Source: Escherichia coli
Lineage (GTDB): Bacteria; Pseudomonadota; Gammaproteobacteria; Enterobacterales; Enterobacteriaceae
Direction: 5' to 3' (one strand)
Assembly: GCF_013315695.1 (NCBI RefSeq)
Contig: NZ_CP054353.1
DNA: 64,000 nt
Shown: positions 9,651 to 35,259 of the stretch, piece after piece
Layout of the letters: each line of letters starts with the position of its first letter
Position numbering within the stretch: position 1 is the first letter of the stretch
Program-made: the position numbers and the translations under genes
The notes under the pieces: model-generated
Seen by the model: the letters and a program-made list of their open reading frames with translations, nothing else
Database searches by the model: none
What the model was told of the DNA's origin: nothing

Positions 9651-10121
<471 letters not shown>

Positions 10122-22139: not shown

Positions 22140-23114
22140 ATGACAAAATTACAACTTAAGTACCGGGAGTTAAAAATTATCTCGGTAATCGCTGCCAGTG
22201 AAAATATCAGCCATGCCGCGACTGTACTTGGCATCGCACAGGCCAACGTCAGCAAATATCTTGCTGATTTTGAATCAAAAGTGGGTTTAAAAGTCTTTGA
22301 CCGAACCACCCGACAGCTGATGCTCACACCTTTTGGCACCGTGCTGTTACCGTACATCAACGACATGCTGGACAGAAACGAGCAGCTTAATAATTTTATT
22401 GCAGATTATAAGCATGAGAAACGTGGTCGGGTCACTATCTATGCACCAACCGGCATAATTACCTATTTATCCAAACATGTAATCGATAAAATTAAAGATA
22501 TCGGTGATATCACCTTATCGCTAAAAACCTGCAATCTTGAGCGTAATGCCTTTTATGAAGGCGTCGAATTTCCCGATGATTGTGATGTTTTAATCAGCTA
22601 CGCCCAACCAAAAGATGAATCGCTGGTTGCCAGTTTTATTACCCAATATGCCGTAACCGCTTATGCCAGCCAGCGCTATCTTGGGAAACATCCCATTAGC
22701 CGTCCTGACGAACTCGAACATCACTCCTGTATTTTGATCGACTCGATGATGATCGACGACGCGAATATCTGGCGCTTCAACGTCGCCGGGAGTAAAGAGG
22801 TGCGGGATTATCGCGTGAAGGGAAATTACGTTTGCGACAACACGCAATCTGCGCTGGAGCTGGCACGAAATCACCTGGGGATTGTGTTTGCGCCAGACAA
22901 AAGTGTGCAGAGCGACCTGCAAGACGGCACGCTGGTGCCCTGCTTTCAGCACCCGTATGAATGGTGGCTGGATCTGGTGGCTATCTTCCGTAAACGGGAA
23001 TACCAGCCCTGGCGGGTCCAGTATGTGCTGGATGAAATGCTGCGTGAAATTCGCCACCAGCTTGCTCAGTCGCAGCAACTGCGGCCTGAACAAGCGGCGG
23101 AAAGCGAAGATTAA
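22140..23114 (+). CDS. yiaU: LysR-family transcriptional regulator YiaU
   Basis: 324 aa; N-terminal HTH and LysR substrate-binding domain. Confidence 0.85.
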
Positions 23115-24247
23115 TGATCGAGATAAAGGTAATGCACCCAGCTGGTCATGCGTAACAGTACTTTGCGCATCACCGAGACATGGCTGAAATGATCAGAGTA
23201 GACCGCCACCTGGGCGTAAATACCGTCTGGTAATGCGCTCAAATCAGTATGCTCATCCAGTTCAATGGTCGCGATAACGCCATCTGAACCCGGCTCTGTG
23301 TTTAACGTCTGTAAGGTGCCGGTCGACTGATAAGCTCCGCCGGGAACGGCTGGACTAATGGCTGCCAGCTTACCGCTGAATACCTTACCTGGCAGAGCAT
23401 TAAACACCACTTCCGCATCGTCGCCAGGAGCCAGTCGCAGCAAGGAGTTCTGACGGAACTGCGCCACGATTTGTCGTTTCTGATCGGGTATAAACACCAT
23501 CACCGGACGTAGCGGCAGCGACGCGGCATAGGTACCCGGACGAATCAGTACCTGGGTCACATAACCATCGCTCGGCGCACGCACTATCGTCTGCTCAAGG
23601 TTATATTTTGCTTCCGCGAGCTGCGCTTTCAGGCTGGCGATTTGAGAATGTTCACCCAACACCAGGCTATCCAGCTGGCTCTGGATCTGTTTTTGTTCCG
23701 CCGCCGCTGATTTTACGGAGGCTTCCTGCGCCAGATAATTTTGCCGCGCCACATCGATATCGCGTTCTGAAAACGGGTTTACTTTCGCCTGACTGCCGCG
23801 TGCGTAACGCTGATACTCTTTAGCGAATTTATCCCGCGTGGCCTTTGCCTGCTGAGTATTCGCCGCCATCTCATCTAACTCTGCGCCCAACGCCCGCTGT
23901 TTATGTTCTGCGGTAACGATATCCGCCATCAGCCGATCCACCCGCGCCTGATAACGCGTCGGGTCCAGTCGAAATAGCACCTCACCTTTTTTAATCAGCG
24001 TATTTTTCTTGTCCGTCACTTCGATCACCACGCCTGTCACCTGTGGGACAACAGGAATAGAAATAACCGCTTTTTGCGCTTTAAAGGTATACGGATGGTT
24101 ATAGTTCATTAACAGAATTAAACCGCTGACAATAAATATGCCACCCAGGGCCGCGGTGGGAATGGTCCATTTATTTACAGGAATTTTGAAGATCTTAAAC
24201 ATTGCCCATGCGAAAGCCACATAGGTCAAAATAATCAGTAAATCCAT
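23111..24247 (-). CDS. yiaV: HlyD-family membrane fusion protein YiaV
   Basis: 378 aa; N-terminal TM helix, coiled coil and beta-barrel sandwich; paralogous to yibH in this window. Confidence 0.85.
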
Positions 24248-24252
24248 AAGTA

Positions 24253-24576
24253 TTACTCGGCAGAAGAGGATTTGATGTCGGCGAGCTGTTTCTCCAGCCC
24301 GGCAATACGCTGTTGTAGTTGCACAACGGAGGAGTCATGGTTTTGCATTCCCCATCCCCGCTCCGGGCGGTAAAGCGTGGCCCAAATCCACAAAAATGGC
24401 CAGATAACATGCAGCGTAAAAAGACTCACCCAACCAGCAACATGAATGGCGTCGGCATGAGGATGATTACGTTTTTTAGCAATCAGGTAGGGAATATCAT
24501 GTAAAATAATAATCCCATAGAAGATCACCAGAAATACAAAAATAAGCACTCCCAGTGCAAAATAATCCAGGAACAT
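24253..24576 (-). CDS. yiaW: DUF3302-family inner membrane protein YiaW
   Basis: 107 aa from [11 protein letters not shown]; about 90% identical to yibI in this window. Confidence 0.8.
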
Positions 24577-26765: not shown

Positions 26766-28061
26766 TTACAGCGGATAATGCGCGAAGTACACGGCTTGCT
26801 GGTCATTAATTTTCTTCTCTTGCGCAAACCCTTCTTTAACAATTGTCCGTAAATCAGCTCGAGCCGTATTATCAGAGACGCCCAGGCTCGCGCTAATTTC
26901 AGCAACTGTGTACTCTTTCCCCGGATTGGCGAGCATCACATTCAGGAGCGTTACCTGGCGCGGATTCAGGCGTTTAAGCACACCAGAGCTAAACAGCACA
27001 CTATCGAGTTTTGCGCTTCGTTGTGTAATTTCATCGATATGCTGCTGCCAGTTTTGCAGAGCACGTTTAATGACACCCGCCTGATATTCAAGGAAATAAG
27101 TCAGATCCATACCATCTGATTCAGTGTACTGGTAGCTGGCGGCATATTTGACCGGTGCAGCATGAAGCAAACGGCTGATGGAAATATATTTAAAGACATC
27201 GTAGCCCGATTTCAGCATATACCAGTAAAACAGCGCCCGACTGGTGCGCCCGTTGCCATCCCGAAACGGATGTTCATGGGCCAGCATAAAATGCAGAATG
27301 CAGGCACGGACCAACGGATGAATATACCCTTCATGGCTGTTTAACCACTGGCAAACTTTTTCCAGCCGTTCCGGTAACAATGCCGCAGCGGGCGGTTGAT
27401 GCACTATATTGCCATCATAGTCGGCGATCACAACATCATCTGTTTCACGAAATTCTCCCGGACGATATTTCGCGTCATTGATTCCACCCATACCAATGGC
27501 ATGTAACTGGCGAATAAGCGCAGGTGTCAGCGGTTCTGCGAGTAAGTGCGGAATTTCCGCCATCAGCCGGGCATTTCCCGCAATCATATGCTCGTCTTCA
27601 GTGCGTGGCGACCGCCCTGTTTCCAGCATTTTTCTCGCCACCAGCGTTGTAGTATTCGCACCTTCCAGCTGGGAGCTGGTGATCGGCTCTTCCAGGCGTA
27701 ACTGGCTTAACTCGGCTCCGGCCCCGCGTAACCGTTCAGTCTGATCTTTCAGCGCCAGCGCGGTAGCACGTTTGTCGACAAGCTCGCACGCTTCTGCAAT
27801 CACCGGGGTAATGTTGAATCCGGCCTGTTCACCCGCTTCATTGCAATAATTAATTCGTTGGATCGCCGCGTTGCGCGCCAGACGGGTAAGCGTCCACGCC
27901 ACATCGACGTTTTCTCCTTTTTTGATGCGGTACTGCAACTCATCAAAAGGCAGATAACGTCCTTTTTCATCGGTAACCCGGTTAAAGCGCAGGTGGGCCA
28001 GGAGTTCCTCACCCGATAAGTGTGATAAAGGAATAAGTCCGGGAGGTGATTTGATAGCCAT
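26766..28061 (-). CDS. Fic (AMPylase-type) family protein with N-terminal inhibitory motif and C-terminal winged-helix domain
   Basis: 431 aa; Fic active-site motif [15 protein letters not shown]-terminal SSQLEG matching the (S/T)xxxE(G/N) inhibitory-helix pattern; C-terminal HTH-like segment ([28 protein letters not shown]). Confidence 0.8.
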
Positions 28062-31377: not shown

Positions 31378-32765
31378 TTCAACAACATCTCCAAAAACCG
31401 TTGCTCATCTTCAAGGCAGCGTAAATCCAGCCACAATCGTCCGTCATAAATACGACCAATCACCGGCACTGGCAATTCACGCCAGCGGGCGGCTAATGAC
31501 TCAAGGTGGCTACCGCGTCCATCATGGGGTGTAAACGTTAATGCCGCGCTCGGCAGGCGATCAACCGGCAGCGAACCACTGCCAATCTGCGAAAGACATG
31601 GCATAACCTGTACCGCAAACTCCGCGCCGTAATGTGCGGCAAGGGGAGCCTGTAAACGTTGTGCCTGGATTTGAATGACCTCTGCGCTGCGGGTAAGCAG
31701 GCGCAGGGTCGGTAATTTTTCACTCAGCGCCTCAGGGTGTAAATAAAGACGCAGCGTGGCTTCCAGCGCCGCGAGGGTCATTTTATCCGCGCGTAATGCA
31801 CGCTTCAGTGGATGGCTTTGCAGGCGGGCGATCATCTCTTTTTTACCAACAATAATTCCTGCCTGCGGCCCGCCTAACAACTTGTCGCCGGAGAAGCTCA
31901 CCAGACTGACGCCCGCCGCAATCAACTCCTGCGGCATTGGCTCTTTCGGCAAACCGTACTGGCTAAGATCGACCAGCGAGCCACTGCCTAAATCAGTCAC
32001 TACGGGGACATCCAGCTCTTTGCCGAGCGCCACCAGTTCCGCTTCATCTATCGCTTTGGTGAATCCCTGAATGCTGTAGTTACTGGTATGTACTTTCATC
32101 AACAGCGCGGTATTTTCATTCACCGCCTGACGATAATCATTAGCGTGCGTGCGGTTGGTGGTCCCTACTTCGTGTAGTGTGCAGCCTGCCTGACGCATAA
32201 CATCAGGAATACGAAACGCGCCGCCAATCTCCACCAGTTCGCCGCGAGAAACCACCACCTCTTTCCCGCTGGCAGTGGCCGCCAACATCAATAACACCGC
32301 CGCCGCATTGTTATTAACGATACAGGCATCTTCCGCCCCCGTAATACGGCACAGCAGCTGCGCCAGCGCACGATCGCGATGTCCGCGTCCGGCGTCGTCC
32401 AGATCGTACTCGAGGGTCACTGGCGAACGCATAGCCTGCGCAACGGCTTCCACCGCGGCTTCTGCCTGTAAAGCTCGCCCAAGATTGGTATGCAGCACGG
32501 TTCCCGTCAGGTTGATCACCGGACGCAGCGCGCTCTGCGCCTCCTTCGTCAGTCGGGCATCGACTTCTTGCGCCCAGTTTTCACACCATGCGGGCAGCGT
32601 CTGGCTATCACGAATCACTTCTCGCGCTTCGTCAAGCATCTGACGCAGCAATTCCACCACGCGGGTGTGACCATAAGTATCACGCAAAGAAAGGAAGGAG
32701 CTATCGCGCAATAAGCGATCAATAGCCGGAAGTTGACTATAGAGGGAACGCGTTTCGGTTGTCAT
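31374..32765 (-). CDS. selA: L-seryl-tRNA(Sec) selenium transferase SelA
   Basis: 463-aa PLP enzyme; 4-bp overlap with selB. Confidence 0.9.
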
Positions 32766-32862
32766 AGGAAACCTGGCTGATCAAGGCCCTCTCACACGGA
32801 GAAGGGCGTTTAACATAACCACGGATTGTAACGTGAGATGGGTCAGGAGGACATATCGCGCA

Positions 32863-33471
32863 TCAAGCCTTTGGCGGTTCGGTGCGGGCGAAACTTTCGC
32901 GGCTAAAGAGGTTTTCGACCAGTTTGACTAAGTGTGGGCGGTCGACACACCAGCCTGGCGCAACGCGGCGGAAATTGAGATATCCGACGGCACAGGCAAT
33001 GGCGATAGTCGCCAGATTGACCGTATCGGTTTTGAGCGTGCCATCGACCAGATATCCTTCCAGCACATCCAGACTGCGGTTGATTTTCTCCCGCTGGCGT
33101 AACAATTCATCTTCAGACTGCTGCGCCGCCGGACGCGCCTGTTCACGCACCGATACCAGCCCGGCATCCATAATGCCATCCGCCAGCGCCTCAATTTTGC
33201 GCACCCGCAACGACTCCAGCGGATCACGCGGCAACATCGCCGGAGCGACATTCATTAATTCAATATATTCAGCGATGATCGGCGAATCAAACCAACATTC
33301 GCCCTCTTCGGTCACCAGCACCGGCACTTTCCCTAACGGGTTAAATTGCGCCACGCCGTTGTCCGCGTTATAGGGCAGTTCATTAATAAATTCGAAAGTT
33401 ATGCCCTTTTCTAACAACAGAATAGAAAGTTTGCGTACAAACGGGCTGGTGTAGCTACCGACGAGTTTCAT
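32863..33471 (-). CDS. yibF: glutathione S-transferase-like protein YibF
   Basis: 202-aa GST fold. Confidence 0.85.
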
Positions 33472-33541
33472 GCCGAGTCCTTTGTGCGAGGAAAAATATC
33501 AGTATGGCTCAGGCTCGCGCAAAACACAGGTGATACAAGTC

Positions 33542-34678
33542 TCAATGATCCAAATAAAGATAATGCATCCAACTGGTCATTCTCAGCAGCACCTTCCGCA
33601 TCACCGAAACATGGCTGAAATGGTCGGAGTAAACTGCCACCTGGGCGTAGATGCCGTCGGGTAAAGCATCGATATCATCGTTGGGGTCCAGTTCAATGGT
33701 TCCCAGCACACCGTCCGTGCCGGGCACGACCGTTAATGATTGCAATACCCCTTGCGCCTGATACGAACCGCCTGGCACGACAGGTAAAATACTAGTCAGT
33801 TTGCCGTGGAACACCTGCCCAGGTAGCGCGTTAAACACCACTTCCGCATCATCGCCGGGTTTCAGACGTAACAGCGAGTTCTGCCGAAATTGGGCGACAA
33901 TTTGCCGTTTTTGCTCGGGGATGAAAACCATCACCGGACGTAGCGGCAAGGCAGCTGCGTATGTACCTGGGCGGATCAGTACCTGAGTAACGTAGCCATT
34001 GCTTGGTGCGCGAATGACAGTCTGCTCAAGGTTATATTTTGCTTCAGTAAGTTGCGCTCTTAAGCTCACAATCTGCGATTGCTCGCCGTTAACCATACTG
34101 TCGAGCTGGCTCTGGATCTGCGCCTGCTCCGCCACCGAGCCTTTCACCAGCGCGTCCTGCGCGAGGAAGTTTTGCCGCGCATCGTCGATGTCACGTTCCG
34201 AGAACGGATTCACCGCCGCCTGGCTGCCTTTCAGGTAACGTTGATAATTTTTAAACAGACGGTCGCGCTCCGCTGAAACCTGGGTGGTGTTGGCCTGCGC
34301 TTCAGTGAGCTGCGCGCGCAGCGTCTTTATATTATGCGTCGCCGTCATCAGGTCAGCCTGAAGTCTGTCAACTCGCGCCTGGTAACGAACCGGGTCGAGC
34401 TTAAAAAGCACCTCGCCCTTTTGAATAAGCTGATTATTTTTGTCGGTGACTTCAGTAACAATTCCCGTCACCTGTGGCGTGATGGGGATCGCTATCACTG
34501 CCTTTTGCGCGGTAAAAGTGTAAGGGTGGTTGTAGTTCATCAACAAAATCAAACCACTCACCAGAAACACGCCTCCCAGCGCCGCCGTCGCCAGCGTCCA
34601 CTGATTTACCGGAATGCGGAAGATTTTAAAGACCGCCCACGCCAGCGCCACGTAAGTTAAAACAATCAATAGATCCAT
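33542..34678 (-). CDS. yibH: HlyD-family membrane fusion protein YibH
   Basis: 378 aa; paralogue of yiaV, same length. Confidence 0.85.
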
Positions 34679-34680
34679 AT

Positions 34681-35043
34681 TTAGATCTCCGGGAACGTGG
34701 AATAGTCAGTCTTTTTCTCGGCGGCGAGTTGATGCTCCAGCCGGGAAATTCGGTCAGAAAGTGCGGCGATTTCCGGGTCTGGCACGTCGCCTTGCGGCGC
34801 AACATGTGACTGCATGCCCCAGCCGCGCTCCGGTTGATAGAGCGTCGCCCAGATCCACAGGAACGGCCAGATAACATGCAGAGTAAACAGGCTCACCCAG
34901 CCCGCCGTATGAATAGCGTCGGCATGGGGATGGTTGCGCTTTTTGGCAATCAGATAAGGGATGTCATGTATCGCGATGATTCCATAAAAAATCACCAGAA
35001 AGACGAAGATCAGCACTCCCAACGCGAAATAGTTTAGAAACAT
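34681..35043 (-). CDS. yibI: DUF3302-family inner membrane protein YibI
   Basis: 120 aa; paralogue of yiaW. Confidence 0.85.
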
Positions 35044-35259
35044 ATCTGCCTCGGATTCACGTTTATCAGTGTTGTTTTTTGGCTGGCAGCCAGAAGGGAG
35101 TCAGGCTGATATTTTGACAATAATCCGGGTTCGCGATTCTCGCCATAACACCAAAGAATAATTTTAAGAGGTGATGAGTTGCTTAGTTACATAACGATTT
35201 TATGACGAAGGCATAACATGCTGCAGATCACATCAGGTGAACGCTGTAAGAAAATATCT

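Follow-up and report, generated by a model that had tools for sequence, protein, structure and literature searches.

The 70 bp that separate yibF from yibH in an Escherichia coli chromosome raise the question of whether an Rhs element is missing there and, if so, whether the site was never filled or was filled and later emptied. The window, that is the whole stretch of 64,000 nucleotides that was analysed, had been described beforehand as carrying an empty Rhs site that marks a strain other than K-12 and may preserve the ancestral junction. The yibF/yibH interval is Rhs position 10 in Table 3 of Jackson et al. (2009; PMC2935791), who inferred that this position postdates the divergence of one group of pathogenic strains and that it arose by duplication of position 5, rhsC.

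The spacer in the window and its counterpart in K-12

In the list of open reading frames of the window, the 70-bp spacer (33472-33541) lies between two intact genes of the minus strand, yibF (32863-33471), which encodes a glutathione S-transferase homologue of 202 aa, and yibH (33542-34678), which encodes an HlyD-family membrane fusion protein of 378 aa. Both genes are annotated as such in AF14, an E. coli strain from a blood culture in the UK (RefSeq) whose sequence matches the full length of the window at 99.9% identity. Upstream of yibH is its partner yibI (DUF3302; 34681-35043, minus strand). The window sequence places the ATG of yibF at 33471-33469 and the stop codon of yibH at 33544-33542, and the gap of 70 bp given in the preliminary description is exact. 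The YibF and YibH products are 100% identical in amino acids to the K-12 proteins. The open reading frames of yibI, yibH, yibF, selA and selB are all on the minus strand, and the order selB-selA-yibF-yibH-yibI-mtlA-mtlD-mtlR is that of K-12, the two chromosomes being collinear apart from the RhsA element.

The distance between yibF and yibH in K-12 BW25113 is 8,287 bp, and the interval contains rhsA (4,134 bp), yibA, an rhs core fragment, yibG, a second rhs fragment and a frameshifted Imm57 immunity gene. The earlier statement that RhsA and several yib genes stand between yibF and yibH in K-12 was thus right, and the two genes are not adjacent in that strain. In a base-level alignment, identity with K-12 stops at position 33508 of the window, 37 bp upstream of the yibF ATG, and restarts at 33541, one base past the yibH stop, the flanks being 97-99% identical up to these breakpoints. 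Between them, K-12 has 8,249 bp (L001 5752-14000), including orphan rhs tips and an H-repeat remnant, in place of the 32 bp at 33509-33540 of the window (TCAGGCTCGCGCAAAACACAGGTGATACAAGT). The spacer is accordingly made of three parts: 37 bp upstream of the yibF ATG that are common to empty and RhsA-occupied genomes (33472-33508, minus strand), 32 bp that are present in unoccupied genomes only (33509-33540), and the single base past the yibH stop that forms the right breakpoint (33541). The 32 bp have no counterpart in the K-12 locus, where the best ungapped match reaches 19/32.

The K-12 element is typical of Rhs in its composition, the GC content being 61.7% in the core and 38.3% in the remainder. 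Neither a tblastn search with RhsA nor a blastn search with the whole K-12 element gave any match in the 64-kb window, and the traits of an Rhs element as a YD-repeat toxin locus are absent from it, namely a GC-rich core of about 1,200 codons with YD repeats, a C-terminal tip rich in AT, and an immunity gene. No rhs core, tip, immunity or H-repeat sequence was found between yibF and yibH. The proposal of an empty Rhs site was confirmed in that the 64 kb contain no Rhs DNA and the ends of the element in occupied strains fall at the breakpoints defined here.

Few signals were recognized inside the spacer. A Shine-Dalgarno-like AAGGA (33478-33482) is located about 6 nt from the yibF ATG, and a -10-like CATACT box (33501-33506), conserved across genera in the spacer alignment, would be the best candidate for the yibF -10 element. 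A consensus scan detected no full sigma-70 promoter and no terminator in the spacer, nor any in the K-12 yibF-rhsA region. An Rfam search of 32700-35700 gave no match at E<=1, and the RNA fold of the spacer was no better than that of shuffled controls (z-score -0.13). This fold includes an imperfect inverted repeat (TTTTGCGCGAG..CTCGCACAAA) around the -10-like box, which was discarded because it lacks significance and Citrobacter does not conserve it. In all likelihood, the spacer holds no more than the ribosome-binding site of yibF and promoter-proximal sequence. As no terminator is visible, transcription from yibIH may also read through into yibF in empty-site strains. This link between yibIH and yibF would be cut where the site is occupied, since all DNA upstream of the -10-like box is different there. 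The empty site itself would call for no active mechanism.

Frequency of the two states and the outgroup junctions

Population counts were made on 5,426 complete E. coli genomes. The whole 70-bp spacer is present in 1,522 of them (28%) and a contiguous yibF-yibH stretch in 1,523, while the K-12-type yibF-rhsA intergenic region occurs in 3,741 (69%); other states at yibF-yibH account for about 3%. A rare third state is found in E. coli QL57EC, where an IS1 truncates the 5' end of yibF (L067 12001-13300) and an IS1-mediated deletion extends from inside yibF through yibT, so that the RhsA site, yibHI and mtlADR are gone. The 32 bp of the spacer (33509-33540) were also sought in occupied genomes, and none was found elsewhere (5,279 places in 5,277 records). 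Among named strains, ST131 and one O145 cattle strain are empty, and K-12, O157:H7 and O111:H- are occupied. We take ST131 to belong to phylogroup B2, K-12 to A, O157:H7 to E and O111:H- to B1. The phylogroup distribution used here is that of these few named strains and of the 2009 paper (Jackson et al., 2009).

To place the two states in a wider frame, a one-genome-per-species collection was scanned with YibF, which yielded 55 loci and mostly missed E. albertii, E. fergusonii, E. marmotae and E. ruysiae; YibF, YibH, YibI, SelA, MtlA and RhsA were then mapped onto these loci. The order yibI-yibH-yibF-selA with a 70-bp spacer was recovered in E. whittamii, in Escherichia sp. E1V33, which is another cryptic lineage, and in two divergent E. 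coli-like genomes. These spacers are identical to that of the window at 66-67 of 70 positions, when yibH itself is 83-93% identical at the nucleotide level, and the 32 bp at 33509-33540 are matched at 30/32 positions in E. whittamii and at 28/32 in Escherichia sp. E1V33. yibH and yibF are also adjacent in six further genera, with alignable spacers in which the CCATACT and AAGGA blocks are conserved. Spacers of 61-92 bp were found in Citrobacter amalonaticus, Citrobacter sp. 18056, Kluyvera cryocrescens, Lelliottia, Huaxiibacter, Pluralibacter and two MAGs. The spacer of C. koseri is 174 bp long and has REP-like repeats inserted; in C. koseri NCTC10786, REP/BIME-like palindromic repeats expand it at L027 ~9826-10000, and yibH, yibI, mtlA and selA of this genome gave fragmented tblastn matches, suggesting frameshifts or poor assembly. 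No RhsA match was obtained outside E. coli among the 55 scanned loci.

Since the outgroup spacers are near-identical or alignable, the 70-bp junction is, on this comparison of sequences, the ancestral state and not the scar of a deletion or excision, in support of the earlier suggestion that the ancestral junction is preserved here. An ancestral short junction agrees with Jackson et al. (2009; PMC2935791). We regard it as very probable that the window carries a never-occupied ancestral yibF-yibH site and that RhsA was inserted in another lineage. The 70-bp interval would then be the original, never-interrupted junction of the yibIH pair with yibF. An Rhs element whose leader and core are copies or close relatives of the rhsC locus would have been placed in the spacer in the lineage leading to most strains of phylogroups A, B1 and E, among them K-12 and O157:H7, where it would lie between the base after the yibH stop codon and the -10-like box of yibF. 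The window strain would stem from a lineage that never received RhsA and so kept the short spacer.

The polarity is not perfectly clean within Escherichia, owing to two cases, the MOSC-domain gene of E. albertii discussed below and a junction in Escherichia sp. MOD1-EC7003. The latter (L007) has a K-12-type left junction up to the equivalent of L001 5898 and no rhs core before the end of its contig, and it may represent a degraded or different occupant of the yibF-yibH site. Past the leader, L007 1-2962 contains a 157-aa lipoprotein-like open reading frame, a fragment of an ISAs1/H-repeat transposase and a 229-aa open reading frame. Given this left junction, the occupied allele extends beyond E. 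coli sensu stricto; it either predates the diversification of E. coli or was passed from one lineage to another by homologous recombination.

Such cases bear on the best of the alternative explanations, a secondary loss in which the ancestor had RhsA and lost it by precise excision or by replacement with an imported empty allele. Presence and absence are not strictly clade-bound, as the K-12-type left junction in a cryptic-clade genome (L007) illustrates, gains and losses in Rhs repertoires are on record (PMC2935791), and replacement by recombination would leave exactly the sequence that is observed. Excision, however, could not have restored 32 bp that agree with E. whittamii at 30/32 positions and align with Citrobacter, and the K-12 element has no flanking direct or inverted repeats to drive it. 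Moreover, all 1,522 empty alleles have the full ancestral-type spacer, and even with a re-imported empty allele the junction sequence would still be ancestral. Secondary loss thus appears improbable beside a site that was never occupied.

Borders and origin of the occupied allele

The borders of the occupied allele are uniform. On the yibF side, the match to the window ended at spacer position 37 in 27/27 sampled occupied genomes; on the yibH side, it began at query position 679, which is window position 33541, in 20/20. The flanks of K-12 and O157 are 98.8-99.2% identical to each other, and each is further from either empty allele examined. Uniform breakpoints and related flanks suggest one founding event followed by inheritance and recombination, and point to a single origin of the occupied allele as far as can be read from these sequences. 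The occupant itself varies, that of O157 being about 6.5 kb long with a primary tip different from that of K-12. From L001 5825 onward, the leader of rhsA (117 bp upstream of its ATG) and the core are 92-96% identical to the rhsC locus, which agrees with the published origin of position 10 by duplication of position 5 (Jackson et al., 2009).

Signatures of transposition or integration were sought at the ends of the K-12 element and rejected: direct repeats (TCCAAATAAA) and inverted repeats both reach 10 nt at most, as they do in about 5% of shuffles. Similarly, the traits of an IS or transposon target are absent from this element, as 32 bp are replaced instead of duplicated and terminal inverted repeats do not exceed chance. 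These observations matter for a second alternative, in which the interval would be an attB-like site dedicated to a mobile element, and its emptiness would reflect a lack of exposure or immunity and not ancestry. Three occupants are known in this one short interval (RhsA, the E. albertii MOSC gene and the C. koseri REP-like repeats), and the breakpoints are the same in every genome sampled out of the 3,741 with the K-12-type junction. However, the annotation of the K-12 and O157 elements includes no integrase or recombinase, there is neither a tRNA nor a target-site duplication, and one event followed by inheritance and recombination explains the uniform breakpoints equally well; a dedicated site is therefore very unlikely. 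The weakest explanation is an assembly artefact by which a repeated Rhs element was collapsed or dropped and yibF falsely joined to yibH. In its favour, Rhs cores, as multi-copy repeats of about 3.7 kb, interrupt assemblies from short reads, and the L007 and L008 contigs end near the yibF-yibH site. Such an artefact is barely conceivable for a junction with 32 bp that occupied genomes lack and outgroups conserve, and which recurs in 1,522 finished genomes, one of them 99.9% identical over the whole window.

With insertion into a formerly uninterrupted spacer as the preferred reading, the exact point of insertion deserves attention, and E. albertii is informative in this respect. In E. albertii CP099910.1 (L061 9296-9943), a MOSC-domain (YiiM-like) gene of 215-230 aa (215 aa as called) is found exactly between yibH and yibF; in E. 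albertii strain L062, an IS1 additionally separates yibH from the MOSC gene. The 17 nt of E. albertii that adjoin the -10-like box of yibF resemble K-12 (..CACCGCCAGG vs ..CATCACCAGG) and not the window. A remnant of the MOSC gene in K-12, which would have implied that RhsA took the place of an E. albertii-like gene, was considered and rejected, because the similarity stops at these 17 nt, and none was seen in the window either.

On the K-12 side, 73 bp (L001 5752-5824 of BW25113) form a joint between the yibF-proximal breakpoint and the leader shared by rhsA and rhsC. This joint is absent from empty genomes as well as from the rhsA/rhsC repeat, which starts at L001 5825, and is unique to the locus. 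Its first ~25-45 nt align with the yibF-upstream spacer of MAG UBA7338 (13/15 in register). In global alignment, the joint scored better with UBA7338 than all 5,000 shuffles, and the comparison with E. albertii gave p = 0.0002; the alignment with the spacer version of the window was not significant (p = 0.44). Direct homology of the 73-bp joint to the window spacer and the 3' end of yibH was likewise not significant (p = 0.28 and 0.44). The UBA7338 spacer resembles both the K-12 and the window versions.

The chances are about even that what aligns as 32 replaced bases is in part a strongly diverged orthologue, in which case the insertion point would be within about 12 nt of the yibH stop. Divergence in the yibF-proximal patch is about 50%, against 1-3% in the flanks, and introgression from a diverged lineage and damage at insertion are both possible sources of it. 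It can also be proposed, tentatively and with the odds rather against it, that the ~12 nt from the yibH stop to the conserved CTGCC-TTTT are a recurrent landing spot for unrelated cargo, and that the occupied allele, with its E. albertii-like spacer, was introgressed. The cargo counted for this proposal is RhsA in E. coli, the MOSC gene in E. albertii and the REP-like repeats in C. koseri. If it were true, no 32 bp would have been deleted from the occupied allele, which would have been recombined in from a diverged Escherichia lineage, with no de novo insertion into an E. coli spacer; even so, it would be a modest refinement of the natural history of Rhs elements.

Strain differences and relation to known systems

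The flanks of the site in the window are 96-98% identical to those of K-12 and there are several other indels, from which the window strain is not K-12, as the preliminary description had it. As a marker of this, the empty junction is weak, because 28% of the complete E. coli genomes are empty.

An IS1 at ~40817-41584, with an InsA-like open reading frame at 40872-41147 and an InsB-like one at 41066-41569, is inserted in a SadB/YajI (DUF3251) lipoprotein gene, just upstream of a large adhesin gene. AF14 has 214 bp of lipoprotein gene at this place; as the IS1 is present in the window and not in AF14, the window strain is not AF14 itself. The adhesin gene (42025-47025, plus strand) encodes a YadA-like trimeric autotransporter of the UpaG/EhaG type with 1,666 aa, including four near-identical tandem repeats of ~85 aa, and its length differs in AF14 (4,746 bp). 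The 6.9-kb yibL-lldP block (~40191-47046) is absent from K-12 and present in O157, O145 and E. albertii. Between aldB and yiaY, the gene of a Fic-family protein of 431 aa (26766-28061, minus strand) is part of a region in which K-12 is without 1.37 kb (homology breaks at 26771/28139). The gene is present in O157, O145 and E. albertii, so that K-12 is probably the deleted state. A paralogue of the yibI-yibH pair, yiaW-yiaV (23114-24576, minus strand; 74% and 77% amino acid identity), is encoded about 9 kb from the spacer. The mtlA-mtlD spacer (~37504-37524) is ~115 bp shorter than in K-12 and the lldD-trmL spacer (~50934-50956) ~170 bp shorter; both differences are probably due to REP-type repeats present in K-12 only.

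An empty RhsA site is an already known and common strain difference and not a new lead, and its importance is slight beyond strain description, the accessory-genome polymorphism being known for long. What is added here is the empty junction to the exact base, its frequency from 5,426 complete genomes and the outgroup evidence for an ancestral spacer. The junction can be used as a simple PCR or in silico marker and as a reference "before" state in studies of Rhs placement.

Among known systems, integrase-borne islands, for example those linked to tRNAs, likewise show presence or absence of several kilobases at a fixed chromosomal point. The yibF-yibH locus is unlike them in having no tRNA, integrase, flanking direct repeats or target duplication. 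The yibH-MOSC-yibF arrangement of E. albertii carries cargo without Rhs sequences, unlike the K-12 RhsA locus. The RhsC locus (kdp-ybfA-rhsC-...-phr; Rhs position 5) matches rhsA in leader and core, but is a separate chromosomal site outside the window, relevant only to where the element absent here came from. A strain that lacks RhsA and has a short unrelated sequence in its place was reportedly described by the laboratory of C. W. Hill in the 1990s. With nothing substantive differing, the window is the empty form of the K-12 RhsA locus, the "Rhs-null" allele, with the same flanking genes and the same breakpoints.
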